DNA of 64,000 nt from Chthoniobacteraceae bacterium (GCA_031409655.1 JANNXQ010000235.1:26025-90024); one strand, 5' to 3'. Shown: positions 36,198 to 56,694, counted from the stretch's first letter. Program-made: numbers and translations. Notes: generated by a model not told the origin, from the sequence alone.

Positions 36198-36215
36198 TTG
36201 TGAAATATTTCACAA
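36198..36215. promoter_or_regulatory. Rex-type operator (perfect 18-bp palindrome)
   Basis: TTGTGAAATATTTCACAA matches TTGTGAA-N4-TTCACAA, about 108 bp upstream of actA. Confidence 0.8.
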
Positions 36216-36322
36216 AGTTGTTGCGTTGGCCTAATTGAAGCGGGATAAGAATTCGACCCGATTTTTTCCGCCTCATGCAGAACGCAACCCCGCACTCCCG
36301 AAGCACCCCGCTCGACTAAGGC

Positions 36323-37054
36323 ATGGCGAATATTTTCCCGCGCGGGAGCAACATTCTCCCAATCAAAATCCTCGTCTGCCTGGCCGTGATCGGACCGGCG
36401 CTGACGGCTGGAGCCTGGTACTACTTTACCCCCAAATACACCCGCGTGGGCTATCAGCCCGCCCAACCGATCCCCTTCCCGCACGACGTGCATTCCAAGC
36501 AACTCGGGATGGATTGCCGCTACTGCCACAGCTTCGTGGAGACGGCCGCGCACTCAAATATCCCGACCACGCAGGTCTGCATCAACTGCCACAACGCGGT
36601 GCAGAAGGACAACCCGAAGCTCGCGCCGCTGCACGAATCCTGGCTGACCGGCAAGCCCATGGAATGGGTACAAATCCACAAGACGCCGGACTACGTGTAT
36701 TTCAATCACGCGGCGCATGTGAACCGTGGCGTCTCCTGCGTGAGCTGCCACGGCAAGGTGAACGAAATGGCGGTCGTCTATCACGCGGAGCCGCACTCGA
36801 TGGCGTGGTGCCTCGAATGCCATCGCGCCCCGGAGAATGCGCTGCGGCCTTTGGATCAGATCACAAATTTGGACTGGACCCCGAAGGCCTTGAACGTCGC
36901 GGACTTCATCGGGAAATACGGCAAGCCGCCCGGCGAGGAGAACACGGATTTCTCGAAAACGGCGTCGCTGACCCAGGAGCAGGTGGGCAAAACTCTGGCG
37001 AAAAAATGGCACATTAATCCGCCGGATAGTAACTGCGCAGGCTGTCACCGATGA
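36323..37054 (+). CDS. actA: Alternative complex III pentaheme cytochrome c
   Basis: Five CxxCH (CRYCH, CINCH, CVSCH, CLECH, CAGCH); QPIPFPHDVH, YFNHAAHV; N-terminal TM. Confidence 0.93.
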   Translation: MANIFPRGSNILPIKILVCLAVIGPALTAGAWYYFTPKYTRVGYQPAQPIPFPHDVHSKQLGMDCRYCHSFVETAAHSNIPTTQVCINCHNAVQKDNPKLAPLHESWLTGKPMEWVQIHKTPDYVYFNHAAHVNRGVSCVSCHGKVNEMAVVYHAEPHSMAWCLECHRAPENALRPLDQITNLDWTPKALNVADFIGKYGKPPGEENTDFSKTASLTQEQVGKTLAKKWHINPPDSNCAGCHR

Positions 37055-40000
37055 GCAAACGAGTTTTCCAACACCCCGTCCCGGCCACCACGGGTAAGAA
37101 ATATTGGCGTTCGCTCGGCGAACTCGGCGATACCCCGGAATTTCGCGGCTGGCTCGAGCGCGAGTTTCCGCAAGGTGCGGCGGAGTTTCAGGGCGGCGAC
37201 GTCTCACGGCGGAATTTCCTGCAATTGATGGGTGCCTCGATGGCCCTGGCCGGCTTCGGCCTCACGGGTTGCCGGCGGATGGAGAAGCATCTGGTGCCTT
37301 TCACGAGGGGCGTGGAGTGGTCCATCCCGGGTAAGACGCTCTTTTTCTCCACCTCCTATCCGACTCGCAAGGGCGCCTCACCGCTGGTCATCGCGACGAA
37401 CGACGGACGGCCCACGAAGGTCGAGGGGAACCCGCTGCATCCGGTCAGCAAAGGCGCGTCCGACGTGCATGCGCAGACTTCGATCCTCGATCTCTATGAC
37501 CCGGATCGGTCCCGGTTTTTCCTCGAAAAGGGCCAGCGCTCGGACGAAGCTGCCTTCACGAAGGCGCTCGCTGAGGCGATGAAAGTTGCGGGCGATGGCT
37601 CGGAGCTTGCCTTCCTCGTGGACGCGAATGAATCCCCGACTCGCGAACGTCTCCGGGCGGAGATCGCGAAGAAATACCCGAAGGCAACGTGGGCGATCTA
37701 CGAACCCCTTGGCGATGATCTCGCGACCCAGGCTGCGCAAGCCGCCTACGGTGGCCTGCGTCCCGTGGCGCAACTCGACAAGGCTGCGGTGATCCTTTCG
37801 ATCGACCACGATTTCCTCGGAAATGATGGCGAAGTCGGGATGGTGCGAGCTTTCAGTGCAAAGCGCAAAGTCGAGGGCCCGGAGTCGAAGATGAACCGGC
37901 TCTACGCGGTTGAAAATCGCTACACCGTGACCGGCGGAATTGCCGATCACCGTCTGCGCCTGCCGGTGAGCCAGATGGGGGCGTTTGCCCTCGCCGTGAG
38001 CAAGAAGGTGTCAGAGTTGACGGCGGATGCGGGTGGTCTCGTGATTTCGAATTCGGTACCGAGTGGGGCGGGTAATTTCCCGGCGGGTTGGGTGGAAGAG
38101 TGCGCTGCGGATCTCGTGGCGCACAAAGGCCAGGCGGTCGTGCTGGTCGGACCGCGTCAGCCAGTGGCGGTGCAGGTCGTAGGGGCATTTATCAATCAGA
38201 TGCTCGGTGCGCCGACGCGAACCCTTGTCGGTCGTGCCGCGACGGTCCAGCCCGGCGCGACCATCACGGACCTTGCGGCAGCCATCAAGAGCAAGCAGAT
38301 CGCCAAGCTTTTCATCCTTGGCGGCAACCCGATCTACAACGCTCCGTCCGATCTCGGTTGGAAGGACTTGCAGGCCTCGGTGGCGCTGGTCGTTCGTCTT
38401 GGTTCGTATGTGGACGAAACCTCCAAGAACGCGACCTGGCACGTTCCGGCCGCTCATTACCTGGAGCAATGGGGTGACGGACGCGCGGCCGACGGGAGTT
38501 ATACCTCCGTCCAGCCGATGATCCTCCCGCTCTTTGGCGGTTGGTCGGAAATCGATCTCCTCGCCACCATCGCTCTCGGGAAAAAGGCCGAAGGTCCGGA
38601 GTTGGTCCAGGAAACGTATCGGAATCTGGTGAAGCCGACGGACTTCACCGCTGGATGGGCAAAGTTCTTGCACGACGGTTTTGTCGCCGGCGAATCCGCG
38701 AAGGCCGAGGTTCTGGCCTTCAATGGCGCGACTGCGGCGGAAGCGCTCAAGGGTCTGAAGGTGGACGCCCCCAGCGATAAGAGCCTCGAAGTCGTCTTCA
38801 TCGCCTGTCCAAAGGTCGATGACGGTCGCTTTAATAACAACGGCTGGCTTCAGGAAATGCCAGACCCGATGACCAAGTTGACTTGGGATAACGCCGCGCT
38901 GATGAGTGCGACCACGGCCCGTCAGCTTGGCGTCAAGGATGGTGGGATGCTCGAGATTACCGTCAATGGGGCGACCCTCACCGTTCCTGCGCTGCGTTTC
39001 CCGGGCCACGCGGATAACTCGATCTCCATCGCGCTTGGATACGGACGTTCCGAGGTTGGTCGGGTTGGCCATGGCACCGGCTTCAATGTCTATCCGCTGC
39101 GCTCCACGGCGGCACCTTATTACGCGCTCGGCGCGACGGCCAAGGCAACCGGTGCAACTTACAAATTGGCGGTTACGCAGGAACACGGCACCCTCGAAGG
39201 TCGTGGCCCTGACCTGACCCGGGAAGGCACCCTGGAGGAGTTTAGGCACGACCCAAATTTCGTGAAGAAGAGCGGCATGGATGCCCACATTCCGCCGAAT
39301 ACGTCGCTCTATACGAATCCCGCCCTCACGGACATGCATCAATGGGGGATGACCGTGGATATGAGCCTTTGCACAGGCTGTTCCGCGTGCATGGTGGCCT
39401 GTCAGTCGGAAAATAACATCCCGATCGTTGGCAAGGAGCAGGTCATCAATGGTCGCGAGATGCACTGGATTCGCACCGATCGTTACTTTGCCTCGCTGAG
39501 CAACGCGGACGAAGAGCCCGAACTGATCTCGCAACCCATGATGTGTCAGCACTGCGAAAGCGCACCGTGCGAAACCGTCTGCCCCGTGAACGCCACGGTG
39601 CATAGCGAAGACGGCCTCAACGTGATGGCCTACAATCGTTGCATCGGCACTCGGTATTGCGCGAACAATTGTCCCTTCAAGGTCCGCCGGTTCAACTTCT
39701 TCGACTACAACGAGCGCAACATCCACAGCCGCAAGGAGGGTAATCCCTTCTCCGGTGTCTATGAGTGGAACCTCACCGCCGATCGTGGCATGGAAGATAC
39801 CCTCAAGCTGCAGAAGAATCCGAACGTCACGGTGCGCATGCGCGGCGTCATGGAGAAATGCACCTTCTGCGTGCAGCGGATTCAGGAGGCGAAGATCGCG
39901 GCTAAAGTCAATGGACGCGACTCCGAGAACATCGAAGACATCCGCATCCCAGCCGATTCCTTTACCAGTGCCTGTGCGCAGGCTTGCCCGGCCGGTGCGA

Positions 40001-40230
40001 TCGTCTTCGGGGACAAGGCAAATCCCGCGAGTAGCGTCTCGAAGCTCATGGCGAAAGAGCGCAGCTACCGCCTCCTTGAGTATTTAAACATCGCTCCCCG
40101 CGTCGTCTATCTCGCACGGATCAAGAACCCGAATCCAAAGATGCCCGGCGCTGGGAAAATCGGCGAGGCCATGCGGTCTCATCATCACGGCGCCAAGCAC
40201 GAAGAATCCGCCAAAGCCGGAGGTCACTAA
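37051..40230 (+). CDS. actB: Alternative complex III molybdopterin-oxidoreductase-like/Fe-S subunit
   Basis: YWRSL, Tat-like [34 protein letters not shown]; Fe-S motifs [34 protein letters not shown]. Confidence 0.95.
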
Positions 40231-40233
40231 CCC

Positions 40234-41661
<1,428 letters not shown>

Positions 41662-42207
41662 ATGGCCGATTACCGCAAAGTTTACGGACTCGGTGCAGAG
41701 TTTGGCAGCGCTGCCGATCTGCTCACCGCCGCTGAGAAAGTCCGCGACGCCGGACACACCAAGTGGGATGTCCACACGCCATTCCCCGTGCATGGCATGG
41801 ACAAAGCCATGGGCCTCGGGAAGTCGTGGCTCTCCGCCCCGGTTTTCATTGGTGGCGCTACCGGACTCCTGACCGCCGTGCTGCTGACTTGCATCCCTTC
41901 GTTTGGGATCTATCCGATCATCGTCAACGGGAAGCCCACTGATTGGCGGACGCTGCCGGCATTCTTTCCGATCATGTTCGAGCTGACGGTCCTTTTCTCG
42001 GCCTTTGCGACGATCGCGGCGGTCCTGATCATGAACCAGTTGCCGAAGTGGTATCATCCCGTTTTCAATTGGGAGCGGTTCAGCCGGGTTTCCGACGACG
42101 GTTACTTCATCGTGATCGAGGCCCGCGATCCCAAGTTCTCAGAATCGAAGACCCGGGAATTGCTCGAAGGCGTCGGCGGCCATCACGTGACCCTCATCCA
42201 CGACTGA
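41662..42207 (+). CDS. actD: Alternative complex III subunit D (DUF3341)
   Basis: DVHTPFPVHGMD, NGKP, PIMFELTVL; gene position. Confidence 0.9.
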   Translation: MADYRKVYGLGAEFGSAADLLTAAEKVRDAGHTKWDVHTPFPVHGMDKAMGLGKSWLSAPVFIGGATGLLTAVLLTCIPSFGIYPIIVNGKPTDWRTLPAFFPIMFELTVLFSAFATIAAVLIMNQLPKWYHPVFNWERFSRVSDDGYFIVIEARDPKFSESKTRELLEGVGGHHVTLIHD

Positions 42208-42208
42208 T

Positions 42209-42895
42209 ATGCTGCGTTATTTTTTCGTTTCCTTCCTTTTGATCACCGTCGCCATCGTCGCGCTGGCTGGGTTCCGTGGCTCGAAGAGTTCGAAGCCCCC
42301 GATCGAGATTTTCCGGGACATGGATCATCAGCCCAAGTTCCAGCCGCAACACCCGAATCGCTTCTTTTCCGACGGTCGCTCCGCCCGCAAGCCGGTTACT
42401 GGGACGATCCCAGTAGGTTACACGATTCCCGGGTCTTTCCTCCAGGCTGGCGCAAAAAACGCCACGATCGCACCCAGTGGTTTTACGAATGCGCCCGATT
42501 ACTACAACACCGGTCGGATCGGCGAGGTTTACGGCGACGGGTTCCCGGCAAATCTAACGGTCAATGAAGCTTTCCTCCGCCGCGGCCGGGAACGGTTCGA
42601 CATAAATTGCTCTGTTTGTCACGGCAAGAGCGGTTTGGGGAACGGTATCGTCGGTCAATACGGACTTGCGGCGATTGCGAACCTTGTTGACGACCGGGTG
42701 AAAGCCATGCCGGACGGTCAGCTCTACTCCACGGTGACTAACGGTAAAAACACCATGGGTGCCTACGGCCCGCAGATCGCCGTTGAGGATCGGTGGGCGA
42801 TCGTGGCGTACATGCGCGCCTTGCAGCGCGCCACTGCCGGCAAGCTGGCAGATCTGCCAGAGGCCCAACAAAAGGAACTCCAAGCGAAAAAATGA
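42209..42895 (+). CDS. actE: Alternative complex III monoheme cytochrome c
   Basis: DMDHQPK, RGRERFDINCSVCHG, GKNTMGAY, DRWAIVAY. Confidence 0.9.
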   Translation: MLRYFFVSFLLITVAIVALAGFRGSKSSKPPIEIFRDMDHQPKFQPQHPNRFFSDGRSARKPVTGTIPVGYTIPGSFLQAGAKNATIAPSGFTNAPDYYNTGRIGEVYGDGFPANLTVNEAFLRRGRERFDINCSVCHGKSGLGNGIVGQYGLAAIANLVDDRVKAMPDGQLYSTVTNGKNTMGAYGPQIAVEDRWAIVAYMRALQRATAGKLADLPEAQQKELQAKK

Positions 42896-44100
42896 GCGAC
42901 CATTCTCACGCCGTTTCCCCACCGGAGCCCGAGACCTTCGACATCAAAGACGCGGGTTCTTTGCCGAAGCTCTTTTTTCTCGCTGGCATCGTTGGGCTGC
43001 TCGGAAGCTTGCTCGGACTCATTATCTCCAAGGAGCAATTCGCGTATTCGTGGCTCTTCGGTTTCAGCTACTGCTTCACGATCTGCGTGGGGGCGCTTTT
43101 CTGGACGTGCCTGCATCACGCCACGGATGCCGAGTGGTCGGTTGTTGTGCGTCGGGTCTTGGAAAATATCGCCTGCCTGATTCCCTACCTCGGCATCGCC
43201 TTTGCGCCATTGTTGGTCTTCTGGTGCGTGCCAACACTCTGGCATTGGTGGAGCATCAATCCTGGGGACGATGTCCTCCTCGACGCGAAGTCTGGCTTCC
43301 TCAACCACGGTTTCTTCCTCTTCCGCATCGCCGCTTACTTCCTGCTTCTGAGCTGGGTCGCTCTGCGTCTGCGTGCGCTTTCGGTTGCTCAGGACGCGGA
43401 CGGCGCGGCGAAGCACACCATGGTCATGCGTAAGTTCGGAATCGGAGGCATTCCCGTCGTTGCCATCTGCCTGACGTTTGCCGCGATCGACTGGCTCATG
43501 GGGCTCGACTGGAAGTGGTTCTCGACCATGTGGGGCGTCTATATCTTTGCCGGTGCGGCAGGGAGTTCGATGTCCCTGCTCGTCCTGATCATCACGGCGA
43601 TGAAGAAGAAAGGTTACCTCAGCTTCGTCAATAAGGAGCATTACCATATCATGGGTAAGTTCATGTTGGCCTTCACCATCTTCTGGGCCTACATCGGTTA
43701 CTCCCAGTACATGCTCATCTGGTATGCGAATATCCCAGAAGAGACGATTTACTTCCGCATCCGCAATACCGAGAGCTGGTGGTATTTCTCCCAATTCCTA
43801 GTGATTGGTCGTTTCTTCCTGCCCTTCCCAATTCTGCTCTTCCAGTTCACGAAAAAGAGCGGGCTCATCAATTTCTGCGCCGTCTGGATCCTGCTGATGC
43901 AAATGCTCGATCTCTTCGTGGTTGTCCTTCCCGCCTTGCACCCGACGGGCGTTCATTTCAGTGATCTCTTCTTCGGCGCGTGCTCGGTGGCCGCGATTGC
44001 CGGGATCCTTGGCTGGATATTCCTCAAGAAGATTGGCCGCACCTGCCTCTTTCCAAAACGCGATCCGCGCCTCGCCGCCTCGCTGAAACTCACGAACTGA
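42892..44100 (+). CDS. actF: Alternative complex III membrane subunit F
   Basis: DWLMGLDWKWFSTMWG, FWAYIGYSQYMLIWYANIPEET; ATGA overlap with actE. Confidence 0.9.
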   Translation: MSDHSHAVSPPEPETFDIKDAGSLPKLFFLAGIVGLLGSLLGLIISKEQFAYSWLFGFSYCFTICVGALFWTCLHHATDAEWSVVVRRVLENIACLIPYLGIAFAPLLVFWCVPTLWHWWSINPGDDVLLDAKSGFLNHGFFLFRIAAYFLLLSWVALRLRALSVAQDADGAAKHTMVMRKFGIGGIPVVAICLTFAAIDWLMGLDWKWFSTMWGVYIFAGAAGSSMSLLVLIITAMKKKGYLSFVNKEHYHIMGKFMLAFTIFWAYIGYSQYMLIWYANIPEETIYFRIRNTESWWYFSQFLVIGRFFLPFPILLFQFTKKSGLINFCAVWILLMQMLDLFVVVLPALHPTGVHFSDLFFGACSVAAIAGILGWIFLKKIGRTCLFPKRDPRLAASLKLTN

Positions 44101-44101
44101 A

Positions 44102-44641
44102 ATGGCCGATACCGAATCCCGCAAGCCCAACGCTTTCCTGGTTTTCCTCGGGAGCGCCCTCGCCCTTACGGTCGTCATCGTCATCGGCAGCGGATTCGTG
44201 GGCTCCAAACCCAAGGTCGAGACGGTGGACTCAAAACGCGGCCAACTCCGGATCGAAGCTCGGGAAAAACTCGATAAGGCCAATCTCGAACAATCGACCG
44301 TCGCAGACTGGGTGGACAAGGAAAAGGGGATCGTGCGCCTTCCGGTGGATCAGGCTATTAAACTGGTCGCCGCTGATCTTGCCGGGAAAAAGCCCGCGCC
44401 CTCGACGGTGAAGGTGGATCCTCCGCTGCCGATGCCGCCGCCCTACGATCCAAATGCCGCTGAGCCCGCTCCCGGGGCGCTCCCTTCTTCACCACAGGGT
44501 TCTGACACCATCCGTTTTGATCCGCCGGTACTGGCGCCATCAGCCGCGGTCGCCCCTGTTGCCGAGAGCCTGACCGCCAGCGCCGCGCCGGACCGGCCGC
44601 CGCTCGTCCATTGGACAGAAAAATCCGAGCCTACGAAATGA
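44102..44641 (+). CDS. ACIII-associated single-pass membrane protein (possible ActG equivalent)
   Basis: One TM, WVDKEKGIVRLPVDQAI motif, Pro-rich tail; tightly coupled to its neighbours. Confidence 0.6.
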   Translation: MADTESRKPNAFLVFLGSALALTVVIVIGSGFVGSKPKVETVDSKRGQLRIEAREKLDKANLEQSTVADWVDKEKGIVRLPVDQAIKLVAADLAGKKPAPSTVKVDPPLPMPPPYDPNAAEPAPGALPSSPQGSDTIRFDPPVLAPSAAVAPVAESLTASAAPDRPPLVHWTEKSEPTK

Positions 44642-46134
44642 CCGCCGCCGCCCCCGCTCCCACACCCGCCGCGCCACTCGGAAGCGCGCCCGTCTCGGCA
44701 ACGCCGGCTCCGGGCCGCGTCCTCGGAATCGAGCGCGCGCGGATCGACGCTTCGACGAGCGGTCCTGTGCTCTTCTTCTTTGGCTCTGCTGTCCTTTGGC
44801 TGCTCGCTTCCACCGTGCTTGGGCTCATTTCTTCGGTGCAACTGCATTCCCCGGAGTTCCTCGCTGGCTGCCCATTTCTGACCTACGGACGCGTCCTTCC
44901 CGCCTACCACCACGCGATCTTCTACGGATGGGCGACTCAGGCCGGGATTGGCGTCGGGCTCTGGCTTCTCTCCCGACTTTGCCGTGTGGAGATGAAACTC
45001 ACGGGAATCCTGATGATCGCGGCCTTGTTCTGCAATATCGGCCTGACTGTCGGCGTCGCGCAGATCCTCGGAGGAAAGACGAGCGGGGTGGAAGGGATGG
45101 AACTCACTGGTGGAGCGGCCGGCATTATGTTTGTCGGCTACGGGCTCGTCGCTCTCTGGGCGGCAATGATCTTCGGCCTGCGCCGCCAAGGTCCCGCTTA
45201 TATTTCAGTCTGGTATCTGCTTGCGGCGTTCCTTTGGCTGCCGTGGTCTTTCGGTTTGGGGTATTTCGGCCAGCAATTGTCTGGTGTTCAAGGAGTCATG
45301 CACAATGTGCTCGCCGCATGGGCCAGCCACAGTCTTTTGCACATGTGGATCACCGGGGTCGGCCTCGCGGCCGCTTACTACCTGATTCCCAAGGTCATCA
45401 ATCGCCCCGTCTTTAGTTACAACCTTGCCGCCATCGGATTTTGGTCATGGCTCGTCTTTGGCGGTTTGACTTCCATGGTCCGCTTGAGCGGTGGACCGAT
45501 CCCCGCATGGCTCGTGACGTTGAGCATCGCGGCGCACATCCTTCTCATCGTTCAGATCGTAACGGTTACTGCCAACTTGGTCCTCACCATGCGCGGCAAC
45601 TACCACATGGTCTATCACTCGCCGACAATCAGGTTCACTTTCTTCGGAGCCATCGCGTTTTCGATTGCCAGTGTGCTCGGCTTGTTCGCTTCTCTTCGCT
45701 CTGTTGACCGGGTGTTGCATTTCACGGAAGCCACGACGGCGATTGATACGGCGATTCTTTACGCTTTCTTCAGCATCGTCATGTTTGGTGCGATTTATTA
45801 TATCATGCCGCGGCTCGTCGGTTGTGAATGGCTCTCTTCGACGATGATCAGCCTGCACTTCTGGGGTGCGGCTTATGGGGGCGGCATGGCGATCTTGTTG
45901 CTCCTCTTCGGGGGGATCGCCAGCGGCTTGACGCTCGCTGATCCTGAGGCGTTGTTTTCTCAGGTCGTACAAATCGGTTACTACTCGCACCTTGGTCGGA
46001 CGATAGGGCTTATCCTGCTCTCGCTCGGACATTTGATCTTCGCTCTGCACTTCCTGCTCATGCTCCTGCGCATCGGTCAGCCCGGTGGTCAGGCCACACT
46101 CTTCGCCCCAATCGGGGACGAGTCCCACCCATGA
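44638..46134 (+). CDS. CcoN-like (cbb3 subunit I fold) membrane protein lacking most metal ligands
   Basis: CcoN landmarks (LTYGR, YISVWY, YYLIPK..RPVFSYNL..GFW, HFT, GAIYYIMPRL) are present, but canonical His positions read Y, V, R, I and T. Confidence 0.85.
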   Translation: MTAAAPAPTPAAPLGSAPVSATPAPGRVLGIERARIDASTSGPVLFFFGSAVLWLLASTVLGLISSVQLHSPEFLAGCPFLTYGRVLPAYHHAIFYGWATQAGIGVGLWLLSRLCRVEMKLTGILMIAALFCNIGLTVGVAQILGGKTSGVEGMELTGGAAGIMFVGYGLVALWAAMIFGLRRQGPAYISVWYLLAAFLWLPWSFGLGYFGQQLSGVQGVMHNVLAAWASHSLLHMWITGVGLAAAYYLIPKVINRPVFSYNLAAIGFWSWLVFGGLTSMVRLSGGPIPAWLVTLSIAAHILLIVQIVTVTANLVLTMRGNYHMVYHSPTIRFTFFGAIAFSIASVLGLFASLRSVDRVLHFTEATTAIDTAILYAFFSIVMFGAIYYIMPRLVGCEWLSSTMISLHFWGAAYGGGMAILLLLFGGIASGLTLADPEALFSQVVQIGYYSHLGRTIGLILLSLGHLIFALHFLLMLLRIGQPGGQATLFAPIGDESHP

Positions 46135-48214: not shown

Positions 48215-48249
48215 TTCCTAATCCATCATCTCCCACTCCCAAGCTGACT

Positions 48250-48750
48250 ATGTTGACGAAAACTCTCTTCTCGCTCGGAACAGCCACTTTGCTCTCAGTC
48301 GCAAGCTTTGCGCAGGAGACAGATCAGATGAAGCTCGGTAAGACAACCTACATGATGACGTGCGTTGCCTGTCACCAGCCGAACGGTGCTGGACTGCCGA
48401 TGGTTTTTCCGCCGATTACGAAGTCCCCTTACGTCATGGAATCAGCAGAGCGCCTCGCCGCGATCATTCTCAAAGGGAATGCGGGCCCTTTCGTGGTGGA
48501 CGGCAAGCCTTACAACAACATCATGGTCCCGCAGGAAGCGATGCTCGATGATACCAAGATTGCGGCTGTCATGACCTACGTCCGCGCAAACTTCGGCAAT
48601 ACTGCTGGACCCGTCGCCGTCGAAGTCGTAGCCGCCGCCCGCAAAAAATTCCTCGATCGCAAGACGCCCTGGTCCCAAGCCGAACTCGACGCTTGGAAAG
48701 ACGATGCCGCCCCTGCTGCTGCGTCTCCTCCAGCAGCGCCGACGAACTAG
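48250..48750 (+). CDS. Secreted monoheme cytochrome c
   Basis: Signal peptide MLTKTLFSLGTATLLSVASFA; CVACH; near-copy of domain 2 of the upstream gene. Confidence 0.9.
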   Translation: MLTKTLFSLGTATLLSVASFAQETDQMKLGKTTYMMTCVACHQPNGAGLPMVFPPITKSPYVMESAERLAAIILKGNAGPFVVDGKPYNNIMVPQEAMLDDTKIAAVMTYVRANFGNTAGPVAVEVVAAARKKFLDRKTPWSQAELDAWKDDAAPAAASPPAAPTN

Positions 48751-48872
48751 TTTCCGGTAGTGTCCAAGAATTTTCAGCACCCTGCACAGAAAGCTCAGAA
48801 ATCCATTGGCACTCCCGGTTAGCCATCGGAAATTGAGCAACCTCTACCAGTCCCGTTCCTAGACTCAAACGT

Positions 48873-50822
48873 ATGGCCGCAACCACCACTTCTCATGAGC
48901 CCGCCGCTCATGCCCATGCTCACGACGATCATCAGCACGAGCAGCACTGGATCTGGAAATACGTCTTTTCCACCGATCACAAGACGATCGGTATCCAATA
49001 CGGGCTGACCGGACTCGTTTTTCTCTTTTTCGGTTTCACTTTGATGATGGTGATGCGTTGGCAGCTTGCGCATCCCGACACCGTGGTGCCGCTAATCGGT
49101 CAGTTCTTTGGGGATATCGGAGTCTGGCTCAACCAGGATGCTCGCTCGCTCGCTACGCTGGCGAAGACCGACAGCTTCGACTCATGGTTCTGGCTGCGCG
49201 CCATTTCCGAAATTTTTCCTGGCGGCAAGCTTTCCGCGGACGGCTACAATTCCTTCGGGGCGATGCACGGCACCATCATGGTGTTCTTCGGGATTGTACC
49301 AATCGCCTTCGCATCCTTCGGAAATTTCGTGGTGCCCCTGCAGATCGGGGCGCCCGACATGACCTTCCCGAAGCTTAACATGGCAAGCTACTGGTGTTTT
49401 TTCATCAGTTGTATCTTTATGTTGGTCTCGTTTCTCGTTCCGGGTGGTGCGGCAAAGTCCGGGTGGACTTCTTATTCACCTCTTGCCGGAATGGCCGATC
49501 TCGGGCCTGGAAATCATCCTTTCTTCAATGGTCAGACGCTTTGGGTCACTGGGATGGTCTTCAACATTACGGCTTCTCTCCTTGGGTCGGTGAATTTCAT
49601 CGCCACGATCATTCAACTCCGGGCTCCGGGGATGACTTGGATGCGCCTTCCTTTTTTCGTCTGGGCGCAATTCGTCACGGCCTTCCTTTTGCTGCTTGCC
49701 TTCCCGCCGCTCGAAGCCGCAGCGGTCATGCAGTTTATGGATCGGGTGTTCGACACGAGTTTCTTCATGCCGACTGGCCTCATCGTGAACCAGCAAGCCA
49801 CGCAATGGAGCGGAGGTGGTAGTCCGGTGCTCTGGCAGCACCTCTTCTGGTTCCTAGCCCATCCGGAAGTTTACGTCCTGATTCTTCCCGGTATCGGCAT
49901 GGTTGCGGAGATCATCGCCTGCAACACCCGCAAGCCGCTCTATGGTTACAAGGCCATGGTAGGTGCCATTTTCGTCCTTGGGTTCCTCAGCTTCATCGTC
50001 TGGGCGCATCATATGTATATGACCGGCATGGGAGCCAAGGTCGCGGCGTTCTTCCAGACGACCACGATTATCATCTCCATCCCTTCCGTGATTTTGATCA
50101 CGGCTTTGCTCCTCTCACTGTGGGGTGGTTCGATTCGTTTCACCACACCGATGCTTTTCGCCACGGCGTTTCTACCGATGTTCGGAATCGGCGGCCTGAC
50201 CGGGATCCCGCTCGCCTTTAATGCCGTCGGTCTCTACCTGCACGATACCTATTACGTCATCGCACATTTTCACTACGTCGTCGCGCCAGGCACCATCTTT
50301 GCAATCTTTGCGGGGATTTATCACTGGTACCCGAAAGCCACTGGAAGGATGCTTGGTGAGTTTCTCGGAAAAGTGCATTTCTGGGGTTCGCTCATCTTCA
50401 TAAATGGAGTCTTCGCACCTATGTTTCTTCAGGGGATGGCAGGAATGCACCGCCGTTGGTATGACGGTGGGGCGATCTACGACAAGATCTCAAATCAGGT
50501 GGTGCTAGGAAAAACGGGCATCGAATGGAATGTGGTCATCTCCACGTCTGCATTTCTCCTTTGTGCGGCTCAGTTGCCCTTCATCTGGAATTTCTTCTGG
50601 AGCATGAAATTTGGGAAGCGCGTGCCGAACGACAATCCTTGGGACGCAACCACCGTCGAATGGGATACGCCTTCGCCTCCGGGACACGGCAATTTCATCA
50701 AGGACATCAAAGTCCATCGTGGACCCTACGAGTATAGCATCCCCGGTGCGGATAAGGACTTCACGCCTCAGACCGAGGAGCCCAGCGATCGGAATAGAGC
50801 TCCTGTCGCCGCCAAACACTGA
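48873..50822 (+). CDS. ctaD: Cytochrome c oxidase subunit I, A1-type heme-copper oxidase
   Basis: STDHKTIG, MHGTIM, PDMTFPKLN, WFLAHPEVY, VWAHHM, AHFHY, GMHRRW. Confidence 0.96.
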   Translation: MAATTTSHEPAAHAHAHDDHQHEQHWIWKYVFSTDHKTIGIQYGLTGLVFLFFGFTLMMVMRWQLAHPDTVVPLIGQFFGDIGVWLNQDARSLATLAKTDSFDSWFWLRAISEIFPGGKLSADGYNSFGAMHGTIMVFFGIVPIAFASFGNFVVPLQIGAPDMTFPKLNMASYWCFFISCIFMLVSFLVPGGAAKSGWTSYSPLAGMADLGPGNHPFFNGQTLWVTGMVFNITASLLGSVNFIATIIQLRAPGMTWMRLPFFVWAQFVTAFLLLLAFPPLEAAAVMQFMDRVFDTSFFMPTGLIVNQQATQWSGGGSPVLWQHLFWFLAHPEVYVLILPGIGMVAEIIACNTRKPLYGYKAMVGAIFVLGFLSFIVWAHHMYMTGMGAKVAAFFQTTTIIISIPSVILITALLLSLWGGSIRFTTPMLFATAFLPMFGIGGLTGIPLAFNAVGLYLHDTYYVIAHFHYVVAPGTIFAIFAGIYHWYPKATGRMLGEFLGKVHFWGSLIFINGVFAPMFLQGMAGMHRRWYDGGAIYDKISNQVVLGKTGIEWNVVISTSAFLLCAAQLPFIWNFFWSMKFGKRVPNDNPWDATTVEWDTPSPPGHGNFIKDIKVHRGPYEYSIPGADKDFTPQTEEPSDRNRAPVAAKH

Positions 50823-50851
50823 CGCCTTCCTTCTGCGCTCCATTCTTTGAC

Positions 50852-51877
50852 ATGCAAATTCCTCACGAAGTCCAGGCCCGTCCTGATACCGGGCTCTATA
50901 ATGCGAAACTTGGCATCTGGCTCTTTCTCGCATCGGAAGTCATGCTCTTCGGCGGGCTCTTCTCCGCCTATATCTTCCTCCGCATGGGCGCCGAACCGGG
51001 ATACTGGCCGCGCGGCCTGCTCAATGTTCCGGTAGGCGCGGGTAACACGGCGATCCTCATTGCTTCCTCGGTGACGGTGGTGCTGGCGTGGGCGTCGTTG
51101 AAGATGCGGAAGTTCCAGCAGTATCGGCTTTGGATGGGAATTTCGATCCTTTGCGGGGCGCTGTTCCTCATTGTCAAACTCGCTTACGAATGGCCCCAGA
51201 AGTTCCATCACTTCGGTGCCTTCATTAAGAAGGGTGCTCTGGAAAAGTATGAGCCGTATCTCGGCAACAAGTATCTGGCCGAGAGAAAGCTCGAGAAACG
51301 AGTCGAAATCTCGGGGCATCTCCATGAGGTCATCATCGACCCAACGGGCGTCGATAAGGCGCGGCTGGATGCCTTTCTCAAGAAGCATCACCTGACGGCG
51401 GAGGCGGACCATAACGATCACAACCTGCAGATGGTCAGTGGGAAGCACCTGACTCCCGGCATAGCGGAGGATCTCGAAAAGCTTCCGGGCATGAAGTTCA
51501 AAGCATTCGAGGTGGGTTTGGATCCCATCAATGCCGCTCCCACGGACCCCGAGAGCGATGAGCCTCACTTTTGGTACAAGGGGTCAACGGAAAAGAAGGG
51601 CCGGATCGCACGCGAAGACATCGAGAGTTACAGTGCATTTGCACCCAAGCACAGTTCTTACTTCGCGGTTTATTTCACGATTACTGGCATCCACGGCTTG
51701 CATGTTTTGGCCGGTGTTTTGATTATGGGCTATCTTTGGCTCCCGATCGAAGGCGGCGCGAATCTCTTCAAGCGCAATCCTGAGCACCTGGCCAACCGCG
51801 TGGAAGTCGTCGGGCTCTTTTGGCACTTCGTTGACCTCGTCTGGATCTTCGCGTTCCCGATCTTTTACCTCCTCTAG
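50852..51877 (+). CDS. ctaE: Cytochrome c oxidase subunit III with large soluble insertion
   Basis: GIWLFLASEVMLFGGLF, NTAILIASS, TGIHGLHV, FWHFVDLVW. Confidence 0.9.
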   Translation: MQIPHEVQARPDTGLYNAKLGIWLFLASEVMLFGGLFSAYIFLRMGAEPGYWPRGLLNVPVGAGNTAILIASSVTVVLAWASLKMRKFQQYRLWMGISILCGALFLIVKLAYEWPQKFHHFGAFIKKGALEKYEPYLGNKYLAERKLEKRVEISGHLHEVIIDPTGVDKARLDAFLKKHHLTAEADHNDHNLQMVSGKHLTPGIAEDLEKLPGMKFKAFEVGLDPINAAPTDPESDEPHFWYKGSTEKKGRIAREDIESYSAFAPKHSSYFAVYFTITGIHGLHVLAGVLIMGYLWLPIEGGANLFKRNPEHLANRVEVVGLFWHFVDLVWIFAFPIFYLL

Positions 51878-51886
51878 GCCAAACTC

Positions 51887-52273
51887 ATGACCGAATCCCA
51901 CGAACAAGGCAAACCAGTAGCGCATGGCACCGCGCCTGAAACGGCCACGCCTGGCGATCATGGCCACGCAGCGCATGACATGCACCTCGGCCTCTATCTT
52001 GGGGTCGGAGTATTCCTGCTCGTCGCCACCGTCATCACGGTCTGGCTGTCCTTCGTCGATTTCGGCAGCCACGCGGCAAACGTGACCGTCGCGATGATCG
52101 TCGCCACCATCAAGGTTGGCTTTGTGGCTGCGATCTTCATGCATTTGAAGGGGGAATCGAAGACGGTCTGGCGCTTTCTCTACTTCACCATCTTTTTTGT
52201 CGCAGGACTGTTCCTGCTCACGCTGCTCCACTATGCCGACCCGATTTTTGGGACTGGTTACAATAAGCACTAA
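51887..52273 (+). CDS. Cytochrome c oxidase subunit IV family protein
   Basis: His-rich N-terminus, three TM helices, ATIKVGFVAAIFMHLK. Confidence 0.85.
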   Translation: MTESHEQGKPVAHGTAPETATPGDHGHAAHDMHLGLYLGVGVFLLVATVITVWLSFVDFGSHAANVTVAMIVATIKVGFVAAIFMHLKGESKTVWRFLYFTIFFVAGLFLLTLLHYADPIFGTGYNKH

Positions 52274-52343
52274 CCCAATTTGCGCGCTTGCTTTGCTAAA
52301 AGTGAGCAGGTGGAGCCACTGAAAAACAATCCATCCAAAGCAT

Positions 52344-52529
52344 ATGTCACTCAAAGCGTTTCACCTCGTCTTCATTTTCCTCTCGATCCTGCTCGCGATG
52401 GGTTGCGCGGCGTGGTCGTATTTGAACAAAACGTCTGTGGACTTCGGCGTCGCCTCCGCCATCGTCGCTGCCGGTCTTGTAATTTATGGCATCTGGTTCA
52501 TGAGGAAAAGTCGAAAGATTATTGTATGA
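52344..52529 (+). CDS. Small two-TM membrane protein
   Basis: 61 aa MSLKAFHLVFI...; its stop overlaps the next ATG (ATGA); lies inside the oxidase cluster. Confidence 0.65.
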   Translation: MSLKAFHLVFIFLSILLAMGCAAWSYLNKTSVDFGVASAIVAAGLVIYGIWFMRKSRKIIV

Positions 52530-52783
52530 AGTCCATCGGTTCTAGCCGCCTCGTCACTCTGTTCATTGCGTTTATCGTTTCGGCGATGCCGGCTACGGTC
52601 CAAGCCTGCTCCGTTTGCATGGGTGCGGATGACAGCAGGACTGGTCCCGCGATCAATTCCGCGATCTTTCTTCTGCTTGGCTGTATCGGCGGCGTCCTCG
52701 CGACATTGGTGGGTTTCGGCTTTTATCTGATGAAACGCGCGAATGCGCCGTTGCCCCCGGAGTTAGAACTGCAACAGTCCTGA
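52526..52783 (+). CDS. Small exported CxxC membrane protein
   Basis: ATG at 52526; signal-like peptide ending VQA, then CSVCMG, then one TM helix. Confidence 0.65.
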   Translation: MKSIGSSRLVTLFIAFIVSAMPATVQACSVCMGADDSRTGPAINSAIFLLLGCIGGVLATLVGFGFYLMKRANAPLPPELELQQS

Positions 52784-52796
52784 ATTTTATCCTGTC

Positions 52797-53585
52797 ATGC
52801 TGAATAAACTCCTGGGAATCGTCCCCAACGCCTCCGAGCACGGCTACCTGATCGACCACCTGCTGGAGTTCTGTCATTGGTTCATGCTCCTGCTCTTCGT
52901 CGGTTGGACCGGTTATTTCTTCTACACGATCTTCCGCTTTCATAAGTCGAGGAATCCGAAGGCCAATTATCATGGGGTGAAGAGTAAGGCATCGGCCCAT
53001 CTTGAGTTTTCCGTTGTCTTGGTCGAGGCGGTATTGCTCCTTGGTTTTGCCCTTCCGTTGTGGGGTAAGCGCGTGAATCCTGACCAGTGGCCGGATAGAG
53101 ACAAAGCGATTAGTGTACACGCGATCGGGGAGCAGTTTGGCTGGAATTTTCATTACCCTGGTCTCGATGGGGTCTTCGGTCGCCGGGAAACCGGACTTGT
53201 GGATGGCAATAATCCCGTGGGCCTCGACATGAATGATCCTGCCGCGAAGGACGATATCCTTTCGAGAAACGAGTTGCATCTTGTGAACCATAAACCCGCG
53301 GTCATCCAGATTTCGTCGAAGGACGTGATTCATGGTTTTTCACTCCAGCACATGCGCATGTCTCAGGATGCGATTCCTGGGAGTAAGATCCCGATGTGGT
53401 TCCGTCCGATCAAGGCGGGTGAGTTTGAAATCGTCTGTTCCCAGCTTTGCGGCGCTGGCCACTACGCGATGAAGGCCCTAATGATCGTCGAGGATCAGGC
53501 AAAGTATGATGAGTGGTTCGATGAGAGGTTTAAAATGCAGCATCCCGACGCAGCAGCCGCGGCGGCCAAGGTGGCGGCGCAGTGA
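52797..53585 (+). CDS. ctaC: Cytochrome c oxidase subunit II (CuA), no fused cytochrome c
   Basis: Two TM helices, EQFGWNFHYP, DVIHGF, CSQLCGAGHYAM. Confidence 0.93.
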   Translation: MLNKLLGIVPNASEHGYLIDHLLEFCHWFMLLLFVGWTGYFFYTIFRFHKSRNPKANYHGVKSKASAHLEFSVVLVEAVLLLGFALPLWGKRVNPDQWPDRDKAISVHAIGEQFGWNFHYPGLDGVFGRRETGLVDGNNPVGLDMNDPAAKDDILSRNELHLVNHKPAVIQISSKDVIHGFSLQHMRMSQDAIPGSKIPMWFRPIKAGEFEIVCSQLCGAGHYAMKALMIVEDQAKYDEWFDERFKMQHPDAAAAAAKVAAQ

Positions 53586-53598
53586 GCGGCGCTTCCAG

Positions 53599-54774
53599 GT
53601 GAACGCAACCTCGACAGCGGTTGACGGGGACCCGGGGCTGGCGCGCTTTGCGAAAGTGGTCGTCGCGCTAACCTTCCTCCTCATTCTCATCGGCGGGCAT
53701 ACGACGACCGCTGGTGCCGGGATGGCGTTTCCGGATTGGCCGATGAGCCACGGATCTTTCAATCCTGATGGCTGGTGGAGCGATGGAATGCAGCGGCTTG
53801 AGCATGGTCACCGTTACCTGGCTGAGGCGGTTGGTTTGGCGATCGGGGTGCTTTGCGCGTGGGTCTGGCGTGCGGGAAAAGCGGTGCCTCTTTCGTTTCT
53901 CGGTGCGGGGCTGCTCGCAGTTGCGGCGGCGCTGCTGAAGCTCCCGAAAGTCACGGTGGTGCATATTGGACTGTGGTCTTCGGTGGTGCTTTTCCTCGGG
54001 CTGCTCTGGTTTTTCTCGCGGAAGGATCGTGCTCCACGCAGCGCAGCGGTGCGTTGGCTGGCGCTCGCGGCATTTTTCGGAGTCTGTGTGCAGGCCGTGC
54101 TCGGGGGCATGCGGGTCATTCACGATCCGGCTGGCACCCTCGCCGGCAGCGTGGGCACGGCCACGGTCCTGCGTGTGGTGCATGGATGTTTCGCCCAATT
54201 TGAGCTTTGCCTCCTCGTGGCCATCGCGGCGCTGCTCTCGCCGGCGTGGGCGCGAGCCTGGCCGAAGGTTGAACTGCGCGGTGTGGCGCGACTCGCCTGG
54301 ATCACGGCAGCGTTCGTGTTTCTCCAACTCGCCGTCGGCGCCTCGATGCGCCATCTCGGCGCTGGCCTCGCGATCCCGACTTATCCGCGGATGGCGGATG
54401 GCGGATGGGTGCCGAGCGCGCACAATGCGCTCATCGACCTCAATTTCACGCACACCCGTCTTGGCGCCGTGGTCGTGTCCATTCTCGTGCTCGCCCTCGT
54501 CGCGCTGGCCTTTCGGAGAGCCGGTAGCGCCTTGGCCATTACCCGGCCCAGCGCGCTCTTGCTGGCCTTGCTCATTGTCCAGTTCAGCCTTGGAGTCCTC
54601 GTCATATGGAAAATGCGTCCGCCAATTCTCACCACGCTCCACGTCGTGAACGGCGCAGCCCTACTCGCGACCCTGGTCCTGCTCGCCGTGCGCGCGAGCC
54701 GCACCGCGCGCCCGCTCACCGTGGCCAGCAAATCGCCGGCGCGGACGCGGGAACTCACGGAGGCGCACGCGTGA
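53599..54774 (+). CDS. ctaA: Heme A synthase (COX15/CtaA)
   Basis: GMAFPDWP, EHGHR, VHGCFAQ, GASMRH, FTHTR, TTLHV; GTG start inferred. Confidence 0.88.
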   Translation: MNATSTAVDGDPGLARFAKVVVALTFLLILIGGHTTTAGAGMAFPDWPMSHGSFNPDGWWSDGMQRLEHGHRYLAEAVGLAIGVLCAWVWRAGKAVPLSFLGAGLLAVAAALLKLPKVTVVHIGLWSSVVLFLGLLWFFSRKDRAPRSAAVRWLALAAFFGVCVQAVLGGMRVIHDPAGTLAGSVGTATVLRVVHGCFAQFELCLLVAIAALLSPAWARAWPKVELRGVARLAWITAAFVFLQLAVGASMRHLGAGLAIPTYPRMADGGWVPSAHNALIDLNFTHTRLGAVVVSILVLALVALAFRRAGSALAITRPSALLLALLIVQFSLGVLVIWKMRPPILTTLHVVNGAALLATLVLLAVRASRTARPLTVASKSPARTRELTEAHA

Positions 54775-55685
54775 GCCGTCCCCTGCAAGACGCCGCTATC
54801 TCGATGGAAATCCCACGCGTGGATGATGAGCAGGGGATCGTCGGGGATGTGCTGGCGCTGACCAAGGCGCGCCTCAGCTTCCTCGTCGTCGTCACTACCT
54901 TTGTCGGTTTCTGCATGGCTTCCGGGCCGCGGCTGGACTGGCTCTTACTCGTCCAGGCAGTGCTCGGCACCACCCTGGCTGCCTTCGCTGCCGCGGCGCT
55001 GAACCAATACTTCGAGTCGCACGTTGATCGACTCATGGAGCGCACCCGCCATCGCCCCCTCCCAGCCGGCCGCATGCGGCCTGGCACGGCTCTTGCCTTT
55101 GGCTTGGTGCTCGGGGCCATCGGTGTCGTCTGGCTCGCCCTCGCGGCGAATACCCTCAGCGCTTCCCTCGCTGCCGCGACCATCCTGATCTACATCGCTT
55201 TTTACACCCCGCTGAAGCGCCGCACTTCGCTCTGCACCATCGTCGGCGCCGTCGCCGGGGCGATTCCGCCAATCATTGGTTGGACCGCCATCCGGCCGTC
55301 CTTCGATGCCGGGGCGTGGATTCTCTTCGGCGTGCTTTTCACCTGGCAGATGCCGCACTTCCTCGCGATCGCCTGGATGTATCGCGATGAATATGCGCAG
55401 GCTGGCTTCGTCATGTTGCGGCGCGACGACCTGAGCGGCTGCGCCACCGCCATGCAGAGCCTGCTCTACACCATCGCGCTCACGGTCATCACCATCTTCC
55501 CCTTCAGCCGAGGCATGAATAACGGCGTCTATCTGACCGGCGCGCTCATCCTCGACGCCCTGCTCCTTGCCTGCGCCGTACAATTCCTGATGCAGCGCAA
55601 TCGTCCCGCCGCCCGCCGCCTCTTTTTCGCCTCCATCATTTTCCTCCCGCTGCTGCTCGGTCTCATGATCTTCACCAAGGTCTGA
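54771..55685 (+). CDS. ctaB: Heme O synthase (protoheme IX farnesyltransferase)
   Basis: LTKARL, DRLMERTRHRPLPAG, YTPLKR, GAIPPIIGW, WQMPHF...YRDEY. Confidence 0.95.
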   Translation: MSRPLQDAAISMEIPRVDDEQGIVGDVLALTKARLSFLVVVTTFVGFCMASGPRLDWLLLVQAVLGTTLAAFAAAALNQYFESHVDRLMERTRHRPLPAGRMRPGTALAFGLVLGAIGVVWLALAANTLSASLAAATILIYIAFYTPLKRRTSLCTIVGAVAGAIPPIIGWTAIRPSFDAGAWILFGVLFTWQMPHFLAIAWMYRDEYAQAGFVMLRRDDLSGCATAMQSLLYTIALTVITIFPFSRGMNNGVYLTGALILDALLLACAVQFLMQRNRPAARRLFFASIIFLPLLLGLMIFTKV

Positions 55686-56266
55686 TGCGAGGTCCTTTGT
55701 TTGCCCTGCTGCTTCTGGTCGCGGGCTGTTCGCGGACCCCGGAGGCAGCGCCCGAAGAACTGCGAAAAATAAAGGAGCTTCCGGCCTTCCAACTCACCGA
55801 GCGCACCGGCGACGCCTTTGGTCTCGATCAAATCAAAGGCCACGTCTGGGTCGCCAATTTCTTCTACACCACCTGCCCCGGTCCCTGCGCCGCGCTCAGC
55901 GCCCGGATGGGTGACGTGCAGAAAGCGGTCGCTGATTTTGGAGACGTCCGCCTCGTCTCGATTTCGAGCGATCCGGTGAAAGACACGCCCGAAGTGCTCC
56001 GCGGATATGCCCAGACCTTTAACGCTGGCCCGCACTGGTTTTTCCTCACTGGGAATAAGGAGGCCATCTACGAACTGGCCAACAAAGGCTTCCTCCTCAG
56101 TCTCACCGAAGACCTGATGAATACCACCGAGCCCATCACCCACGCCACCCGCCTGGTCCTCGTCGATCGCACCGGCACCATCCGCGGTTACTACGATGGC
56201 ACCACCAGCGAAGGCATCGCCCGCCTGCTCGCCGCCGTAAAACGTCTCCGCGCAGAAAAGCCATGA
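55685..56266 (+). CDS. SCO family copper chaperone (lipoprotein)
   Basis: Lipobox VAGC; FFYTTCPGPC (CxxxC); DPVKDTP; ITH. Confidence 0.92.
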   Translation: MRGPLFALLLLVAGCSRTPEAAPEELRKIKELPAFQLTERTGDAFGLDQIKGHVWVANFFYTTCPGPCAALSARMGDVQKAVADFGDVRLVSISSDPVKDTPEVLRGYAQTFNAGPHWFFLTGNKEAIYELANKGFLLSLTEDLMNTTEPITHATRLVLVDRTGTIRGYYDGTTSEGIARLLAAVKRLRAEKP

Positions 56267-56694
56267 CCGTCAGCGACCTGCCTGCCGTCAATGCCAGCCT
56301 CAACGCGCTGAGCACCCTCTTCATCATCGCCGGGCTCATCGCGATTAAGAACGACCGCAAGACCGCGCACATCGCGGCGATGGTCAGCGCGCTCGTCACG
56401 TCCACCGCCTTCCTCGCGAGCTACCTCACCTACCACTGGATGAAAGCCGGTGTGGTCACCAAGTTCACCGAGCCCGGCTGGCCCAAAGCGGTCTATTTCG
56501 TCATCCTCTTCACCCACATCCCGTTGGCCGCCCTCACCCTGCCGCTCGTCTTAGTGACCGTCATCCCTGCCCTCCGCGCCCGCTATGATCGGCACCGCCG
56601 CTGGGCGAAAATCACGGCCCCCATCTGGCTCTACGTCTCGGTGACCGGCGTCCTCGTTTACTTGATGCTCTACGTCTGGTATCCGCCCCAGTAG
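56263..56694 (+). CDS. DUF420 family membrane protein
   Basis: LPAVNASLN, FLASYLTYH, THIPLA, HRRWAK...WLYVSVTG. Confidence 0.9.
   Translation: MTVSDLPAVNASLNALSTLFIIAGLIAIKNDRKTAHIAAMVSALVTSTAFLASYLTYHWMKAGVVTKFTEPGWPKAVYFVILFTHIPLAALTLPLVLVTVIPALRARYDRHRRWAKITAPIWLYVSVTGVLVYLMLYVWYPPQ

Follow-up and report, generated by a model that had tools for sequence, protein, structure and literature searches.

What becomes of an oxidase core when most of the residues that held its metals are gone and its gene is still there? The question is raised by a 64,000-nucleotide stretch of DNA from a Chthoniobacteraceae bacterium (GCA_031409655.1, JANNXQ010000235.1:26025-90024), the whole of which we call the window. 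Gene calling and family scans place 21 genes, all on the plus strand, at 36323..56694. They run from the act genes of an alternative complex III (ACIII), through a cbb3-like block of ccoN, ccoO and cytochrome c genes, to an aa3 oxidase, its assembly genes and a DUF420 gene; the closest named homologues of the proteins are from Chthoniobacterales. An earlier sequence-only reading had given this order, with 21 co-oriented, often overlapping genes and a largest gap of about 120 bp. Family scans (ActA–E to DUF420) and matches to solved structures (ActF, ActG) agree with it: neighbouring genes share four bases at eight junctions and one base at a ninth, and the widest gap, between the monoheme cytochrome and subunit I genes, measures 122 bp (the second widest, 70 bp). 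Clusters of this general form have been described before. What deserves further work is an oxidase core that has been repeatedly inactivated and is likely kept as a dock.

Is the CcoN-like protein (44638..46134, plus strand) an enzyme at all? Its gene starts at the ATG at 44638; residue numbers count from 44635, so that this Met is residue 2. The protein is homologous to the solved CcoN 3mk7_A (E 7e-18), and its AlphaFold2 model, with a predicted local distance difference test score (pLDDT) of 94, has the full 12-helix fold, 3mk7 being the top Foldseek match (template-modelling score 0.84). We set the ligand sites by alignment to solved CcoN and to the intact fused CcoNO of the same genome; the positions come from that alignment. 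The six His sites read Y91, H232, V282, R283, I370 and T372, so that one His of six is left, and the site of the cross-link Tyr on helix VII is G276. R86, E153 and E156 are retained. At the proton-path sites Thr and one Tyr are kept, and Ser, His, Tyr and Glu are replaced by Ala, Gly, Phe and Leu; intact ACIII-linked copies likewise lack the His and Glu of this path. Because five of the six His and the cross-link Tyr are gone, we conclude from the sequence that the window CcoN cannot be an oxidase; the ligand loss would exclude O2 reduction. Databases and reviews annotate such proteins as working cbb3 oxidases, the source names say cbb3 subunit I, and the orthologues in 30 of 79 loci are intact. 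Set against the missing His and Tyr, and a score of 91 bits where the ccoN family cut-off is 583, a working cbb3 oxidase in the window is vanishingly improbable. We write CcoN* for this pseudo-oxidase and call such copies dead. The earlier reading mentions neither the loss of these ligands nor the absence of the K-channel lysine from aa3 subunit I.

Might another cofactor have taken the place of the lost metals? We took the best 150 homologues as representatives at 50% identity; 132 are full-length and 18 were dropped by length. At the six sites 68 of the 132 hold no His, 44 hold one, 14 two, 2 three, 1 four and 3 six. No conserved substitute ligand set occurs among these 132, nor was Glu or any other substitute metal ligand found there of the sort used by nitric oxide reductases and the non-O2 heme-copper families, which passages of PMC11214002 describe as keeping their metal sites. 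At the former ligand sites the commonest residue reaches a frequency of 0.17–0.48 among dead homologues, and the residues differ between lineages. A new activity for CcoN*, whether as an ion or proton path or through a different cofactor site, would suit the full 12-helix fold and the retained polar residues R86, E156, T364 and H408. The absence of any conserved substitute at these variable sites, the decay of independent lineages to different residues, and the presence of Ala and Phe at the proton-path Ser and Tyr sites of the window make such a gain quite improbable. Fusions of this CcoN type to CcoO form two single-member clusters (P0190, P0268), which lie on short contigs and may be assembly artefacts.

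Is the gene merely decaying? Dead CcoN is full-length, with conserved positions, in 126 clusters at 50% identity. By a simple counting method, the ratio of nonsynonymous to synonymous substitution (dN/dS) is 0.09–0.10 between the window CcoN and three same-genus copies, and 0.07, 0.12 and 0.16 in three further dead pairs. Intact CcoN gives 0.02–0.07 in four pairs, two further pairs being saturated. A relic carried along in an overlapping operon and decaying slowly would be expected to evolve faster than its intact relatives, and the dead copies do so (0.07–0.38 against 0.02–0.07) and have long branches; however, their full length and conserved positions in 126 clusters, with dN/dS well under 1, make a relic very improbable. 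By these ratios the dead copies are under purifying selection. The phrase ‘repurposed cbb3 module’ in the sequence-only reading was thus well chosen, for the ligands of CcoN are lost yet its sequence is still conserved.

How often were the ligands lost? In a phylum sample of 200 genomes, 45 carry the CcoN type of the window, intact in 26 loci and dead in 19. To these 45 loci we added 20 same-order loci (20 of the 32 with a match), 13 from named records and the window itself, giving 79. The named-record loci come from the matches listed in a scan with aa3 subunit I, among which there was no Methylacidiphilum record. The His counts in the 79 loci are bimodal: six in 30 loci, 0–2 in 49 and 3–5 in none, and intact and dead copies occupy the same operon slot. 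In a first tree of CcoN itself long branches drew the dead copies together; because of this distortion we followed the intact/dead label on trees of the neighbouring genes. On the ActCDEF tree (64 rows, without the loci whose act genes are truncated or split or that hold another CcoN type) the label needs 11 changes, at least 8 of them forced. On the tree of CcoO and the cytochrome it needs seven, and a single dead clade is rejected by the approximately unbiased test (p-AU 1e-62). The CcoN tree, with the ligand columns and locus L049 removed, needs two changes, and again rejects a single clade (p-AU 0.004). We conclude from these trees that there were at least two losses of the ligands, and probably seven or more. 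The death of CcoN was also compared with the presence of a second, fused ccoNO, and by inspection, which is not a statistical test, no clear pattern emerged. The intact ACIII-linked copies (the L007–L037 set, L110, L184, L189 and L190) form an atypical C-family subgroup without the canonical proton-path and proximal-site His and Glu. Similar CcoN proteins occur in L048, L052 and L053 with no act genes in the stretch.

With which of its neighbours does the dead subunit travel? The order act–ccoN–ccoO–cytochrome c holds in 43 of the 45 phylum-sample loci; of the other two, one lacks act genes and one is truncated where its contig ends. This is the part of the arrangement whose conservation the earlier reading had asked to be checked, and its recurrence is far beyond chance. 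Conversely, the CcoN type of the window is present in 45 of 46 same-class genomes with a strong ActD match (ten genomes of one genus with weak ActD matches are excluded from the 46), and it had no match in 13 ACIII genomes outside the class. The single exception, G039, has kept ACIII and lacks ccoN, ccoO and the anchored cytochrome together; there the aa3 subunits III, IV and II directly follow ACIII (L191, G039:C1), and subunit I is on another contig.

The aa3 genes behave differently. They follow the module in 7 of the 45 phylum-sample loci and in 17 of the 20 same-order loci. Seven of those 20, all from the family of the window, repeat its gene order as far as subunit II and have the extra cytochrome as well; five of the 20 have a different, lysine-bearing aa3 in II–I order. 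Two unrelated aa3 types fill the slot downstream of the module. Ten dead-CcoN genomes encode, unlinked to the module, a caa3 that retains the lysine and has a heme c in its subunit II. Every one of the 19 dead-CcoN genomes searched has an aa3 subunit I; six genomes with the module lack it, and in each of these CcoN is intact. This contrast is suggestive, its data points not being independent.

Do ACIII, CcoN*–CcoO and the aa3 of the window nonetheless form one fixed supercomplex, with CcoO and the cytochromes as a hard wire? The tight packing of the genes invites this reading, as does the frequency with which aa3 follows the module within the order. The CxxCH motifs number five in ActA, one in ActE, one in CcoO, two in the diheme cytochrome, one in the monoheme cytochrome and none in subunit II. 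As the earlier reading had said, subunit II has no fused cytochrome c and ActA no extra monoheme domain, and the window CcoO retains His/Met ligation of its heme. On the other hand, aa3 adjoins the module in just those 7 of 45 loci, two unrelated aa3 types share the downstream slot, and dead CcoN occurs beside an unlinked caa3 in ten genomes. The axial Met of CcoO is replaced in 15 of 49 dead loci. The transcripts of Methylacidiphilum fumariolicum SolV, whose CcoN is equally degenerate (read by eye), point the same way: in the PMC10205796 supplement, ccoN stands at 36/47 transcripts per million, actC at 46/56 and subunit I at 264/317, about seven times ccoN, a ratio that a second close copy of subunit I (as in family f11) could inflate. 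In the structural model described below, moreover, the heme domain of the cytochrome makes no confident contact. We therefore regard a fixed supercomplex as rather unlikely; the linkage survey does not support one, nor does it support the proposal that the module is a dedicated bridge to the aa3 of the window in a distinct supercomplex, for the module accompanies ACIII in 45 of 46 genomes. The cluster is best explained as a pair of modules that can occur apart: one is ACIII together with CcoN*, CcoO and the anchored cytochrome, the other a lysine-less aa3 with its assembly genes.

If CcoN* goes with ACIII, what might it do there? The answer may lie in the gene after ccoO. This encodes a membrane-anchored cytochrome c (46820..48214, plus strand) comprising a CcoP-like anchor at about residues 28–82, a Pro/Ala/Gly linker and two c552-type heme domains; most relatives have one heme domain. 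The N-terminal anchor aligns by profile to 3mk7_C, which is CcoP, and the linker is 13–34 residues long. The nearest relatives of the heme domain are the NirK-tethered cytochrome and Thermus c552, both from families that donate to copper sites; PDB entry 2fwl contains c552 together with a CuA subunit. In a three-chain model, residues 28–82 of the cytochrome were placed on CcoN* with a score of 0.82. The best of three controls scored 0.30, and the score fell to 0.01 once CcoN* was replaced. The runs share at least 72% of their contacts, with a partner pLDDT of at least 75; the mark used for docking is reached by 116 of 157 solved pairs and 2 of 215 mismatched ones, counts that hold roughly for a three-chain job. 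Conservation among 126 dead homologues is higher at the 48 residues predicted to make contact (0.56) than at the remaining 417 (0.45), a difference that 6 of 464 shifted controls reach. The anchor is thus predicted to bind CcoN* as CcoP binds CcoN.

Downstream lies a monoheme cytochrome c (48250..48750, plus strand) with a likely signal peptide. It shares 78% identity with the second of the two heme domains encoded by the preceding gene, of which it is likely a duplicate, and it also occurs in the same-family loci L172 and L174–L179 and in L108 and L115.

Which heme carries the electrons? CcoO (46131..46823, plus strand; PF02433) has one transmembrane helix and a heme c, with Met159 and His as ligands. 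Its heme-binding motif is kept in 79 of 79 loci and its axial Met in 30 of 30 intact loci. In the dead loci the Met is kept in 34 of 49; in the other 15 it is replaced by Cys in nine (L038, L100, L101, L103, L104, L106, L107, L115, L119), by His in three (L174, L175, L046) and otherwise in three. A change to Cys or His would likely shift the heme potential strongly. The axial Met of the anchored cytochrome, by comparison, is kept in 78 of 78 loci. The earlier reading had made the cbb3 module the wire between ACIII and the oxidase. The part that stands is that a module cytochrome is the most likely link, because ActA lacks a sixth heme and subunit II lacks heme c. CcoO is not the universal wire, because its axial Met drifts in dead loci and that of the downstream cytochrome is invariant.

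A quite different use of CcoN*–CcoO would be mainly structural: a subunit needed for the assembly of ACIII in this class, with the electrons leaving through other carriers. Near-perfect co-inheritance with ACIII, the similar transcript levels of ccoN and actC in SolV, the drift of the CcoO ligand and the alternative carriers of some lineages would all fit it. Yet the surface that dead CcoN conserves is where the cytochrome anchor is predicted to bind, the Met of that cytochrome is invariant, and G039 retains ACIII without the module; we consider a purely structural part unlikely.

We lean instead, by a modest amount, to the view that dead CcoN persists because it gives a tethered cytochrome c a docking place in the membrane, and that this cytochrome would shuttle electrons from ActE to CuA, on the grounds of the anchor model, the conservation of the contact residues, the c552-type heme domain and its invariant Met. 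The ancestor would have been a working ACIII-linked C-family oxidase, whose O2 site decayed wherever another oxidase was available and whose docking surface was retained. The cytochrome anchor is predicted to sit on CcoN*, with the heme domain hanging on its flexible linker; contact between CcoN* and ACIII is suggested by gene linkage. Electrons would pass from menaquinol through ActC, ActB, ActA and ActE to the tethered c552-type heme and on to CuA, the tethered cytochrome standing in for the mobile sixth heme that Flavobacterium ActA carries, or for the caa3 heme c of Rhodothermus marinus.

A number of points weigh against this view. No test in the analysis supports contact of CcoN* with ACIII or with aa3, and the docking model may reflect memory of solved cbb3 complexes. 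Electrons could possibly pass through CcoO, whose Met appears in the window sequence. Several dead-CcoN lineages have other candidate carriers (ActG–cytochrome fusions, the soluble duplicate), which weakens the docked cytochrome as sole link, and the Rieske/cytochrome b pair and the intact fused CcoNO provide other donors and acceptors in this genome. The dock is not indispensable, because G039 and the ACIII genomes outside the class do without the module. The contrast in aa3 presence rests on three genera. Two high-GC dead pairs have dN/dS of 0.26 and 0.38, their act genes being high too; most dS values are near saturation, and one dead pair is saturated. Finally, the trees leave the number of losses between 2 and 11, the CcoN tree itself needing just 2 changes, and gene replacement could mimic some of the label changes.

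How does the aa3 module differ from the textbook enzyme? Subunit I (48873..50822, plus strand) is of A1 type and keeps the six His, the His–Tyr pair, and D162 and E332 of the D-channel. The K-channel Lys has become Leu408, and the S291 site is Ala345. It thus has the ligands, D-channel and CuA partner of an A1-type aa3 without the K-channel Lys and Ser, and by these residues it belongs to a published lysine-less A1 group. In subunit II (52797..53585, plus strand; TIGR02866) Gln replaces the usual Glu of the CuA motif, and there is no heme c. The entry Glu70 is kept, and seven residues on there is an extra mid-membrane Glu77 where Rhodobacter sphaeroides has Pro. The extra Glu is present in 30 of 30 lysine-less rows and 0 of 26 lysine-bearing rows, a comparison in which the lysine-less rows form one clade (one event), one row is duplicated and three lysine-bearing rows are poorly aligned. 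We infer that this Glu may take over from the K-channel Lys. Loss of the lysine might have been coupled to the death of CcoN; it is not, for lysine-less aa3 occurs beside intact CcoN (L010, L110) and lysine-bearing aa3 beside dead CcoN (L187, L188). Among the matches listed, the aa3 type of the window occurs in records from Verrucomicrobiota, Marinimicrobia, Phycisphaerales and Acidobacteriaceae, and 15 of its 30 loci have no ACIII or CcoN gene in the stretch. In L093, L112 and L118, where ACIII is absent, large multiheme proteins with 6–8 heme motifs lie upstream of the lysine-less aa3.

The remaining genes of this module, all on the plus strand, are those for subunit III (50852..51877, a short form with a soluble insertion, by family scans), subunit IV (51887..52273; PF03626, TIGR02229), a 61-residue protein (52344..52529) and an 85-residue protein with a CxxC pair (52526..52783), heme A synthase (ctaA, 53599..54774; PF02628), heme O synthase (ctaB, 54771..55685; TIGR01473, above cut-off), the copper chaperone sco (55685..56266; PF02630) and the DUF420 membrane protein (56263..56694; PF04238). 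The start codons of ctaA and ctaB are inferred. The insertion in subunit III is long; in relatives this subunit is anywhere between about 200 and 550 residues in length. The 61- and 85-residue proteins each have two transmembrane helices and no family; they accompany lysine-less aa3 genes across phyla, and atlas searches with them returned unnamed clusters only. The 85-residue CxxC protein could serve copper delivery. No ccoQ or ccoGHIS was recognised in the cluster.

The ACIII genes precede all of these on the same strand. They are actA (36323..37054), a pentaheme cytochrome c with five CxxCH and no extra monoheme domain (PF14522, QrcA-like); actB (37051..40230), by family scans a molybdopterin-oxidoreductase-like protein with an Fe–S domain; actC (40234..41661), an NrfD-family membrane subunit (PF03916) in which, by family, we presume the quinol site to lie; actD (41662..42207; PF11821, E 1e-55); actE (42209..42895), a monoheme cytochrome c that position and family suggest is the exit heme; and actF (42892..44100; profile match to 6f0k_F, E 8e-68). 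The next gene (44102..44641), left unnamed in the earlier reading, encodes one transmembrane helix and is an actG homologue (profile match to PDB 8k9e_G, E 3e-5). The set is that of an ACIII, actABCDEF(G) with pentaheme ActA, Fe–S ActB, NrfD-type ActC and ActF and monoheme ActE, and we assume by family that its activity is quinol:cytochrome c. In seven loci (L038, L047, L100, L101, L107, L119, L174) the gene in the actG slot also encodes a monoheme cytochrome c domain, through which electrons might leave ACIII by a second route. The flanks of the cluster (29896–36148 and 56727–58788) are unrelated and hold a passenger-repeat protein, an ArnT-like glycosyltransferase, a minus-strand pilin-like gene and a DUF1501 gene.

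How might the cluster be regulated? A perfect 18-bp palindrome (36198..36215) lies 107 nt upstream of actA and matches the consensus of the operator for Rex, the NADH/NAD+ sensor. The genome has five perfect copies, the other four preceding nuoB, nuoD, nuoEF (a fused frame) and atpB, and it has a rex gene (palindrome and rex positions on G000:C53, C183, C239 and C293, L204–L207, and on C18, L203). The palindrome is exact in the actA upstream regions of 7 of 52 relatives, six of them from the same family. With such sites upstream of respiratory genes and a rex gene present, the palindrome is likely a Rex operator, and the five sites together suggest a small Rex regulon made up of complex I, ACIII–oxidase and ATP synthase genes. 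Rex would likely repress these genes at low NADH/NAD+. Across 36001–56000 a promoter scan found 1 promoter-like site where 5.5 are expected, and a terminator scan 18 terminator-like sites against 21 expected, neither above chance. The genome is 94.9% complete. Besides the intact fused CcoNO it encodes a Rieske protein and a cytochrome b fused to c-type heme motifs (L004, G000:C133), that is, a bc-type complex beside ACIII; no bd oxidase was found in it.

Why does this matter? If the dock reading is true, a heme-copper oxidase subunit I has been retained without any metal site, and the living intact and dead orthologues in one operon slot provide a natural series from enzyme to scaffold. Surveys that count a CcoN of this type as a high-affinity oxidase are likely wrong, and inferences about oxygen niche change with them: the ‘high-affinity cbb3’ of Methylacidiphilum and Chthoniobacter lacks its ligands, contrary to a review that credits the methanotrophs with it, and Methylacidiphilum and many soil Chthoniobacterales would, if so, be without the ACIII-linked high-affinity oxidase ascribed to them. 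SolV grows in chemostats and expresses its dead ccoN copy, which makes heme analysis and cryo-EM feasible. The lysine-less aa3 with its relocated Glu makes the role of the K-channel testable; the loss of the lysine itself is already catalogued. The boldest reading of the data would have the Verrucomicrobiae carry an ACIII–CcoNOP assembly whose oxidase core, switched off on many separate occasions, survives as a respiratory pseudoenzyme, a cofactor-free 12-helix dock that serves as the exit arm of complex III; here it would feed a lysine-less aa3 in which a Glu of subunit II has become the K-channel proton carrier. This composite picture is plausible, though we would place it somewhat short of probable.

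How does the locus compare with known systems? We found no prior description of repeated ligand loss, the docking model or the Rex-type operator in the literature searched. For ligand-less CcoN the search, which left most subscription literature outside its reach, found no description; there was none in the accessible portions of PMC6431628, PMC4013037, PMC13274419 and bioRxiv 2021.10.15.464467. Passages of Schmitz 2021 (PMC8498564, citing Refojo 2010) describe ACIII genes as neighbours of cbb3 genes in verrucomicrobial methanotrophs and Opitutaceae, and parts of Awala 2024 (bioRxiv) and Schmitz 2023 count this cbb3 as an oxidase. The arrangement and the orthologous genes are shared with the window. 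Although treated in print as an oxidase, the named Methylacidiphilum copies (P0272, P0273), from M. infernorum and M. kamchatkense, keep one His of six; that of C. flavus keeps none. Among the rows listed in the Murali 2024 table, those for M. fumariolicum give no C-family enzyme and carry no comment. The lysine-less A1 oxidase of Methylacidiphilum was catalogued by Degli Esposti 2021 (PMC8239418 supplement) in a ‘KC channel’ group. Its Methylacidiphilum sp. Yel row resembles the window, with K354 replaced by Leu, S291 lost, T351 replaced by Ser and subunit II E78 kept; the additional Glu that subunit II has in mid-membrane is not among the features tabulated there.

With the Pseudomonas stutzeri CcoNOP (3mk7) the window shares the CcoN fold, a heme-c CcoO, a third subunit with a CcoP-aligned anchor and the Arg and Glu residues at the heme-propionate/calcium region. 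Unlike it, the window CcoN lacks the ligand set for heme b, heme b3 and CuB and the cross-link Tyr, the third subunit bears c552-type domains on a linker, and the set is encoded with ACIII. The ACIII–aa3 supercomplex of Flavobacterium johnsoniae and the ACIII–caa3 of Rhodothermus marinus have the ActA–F core in common with the window, as PMC8552683 and PMC5928083 describe it; there a c-type heme bridges ActE or ActA to CuA and no soluble carrier is needed. In F. johnsoniae the bridging heme is fused to ActA and in R. marinus to subunit II. In the window the bridge would be a heme on a protein of its own, anchored in the membrane and predicted to dock on dead CcoN. If so, ACIII and an oxidase can be linked in a third manner.

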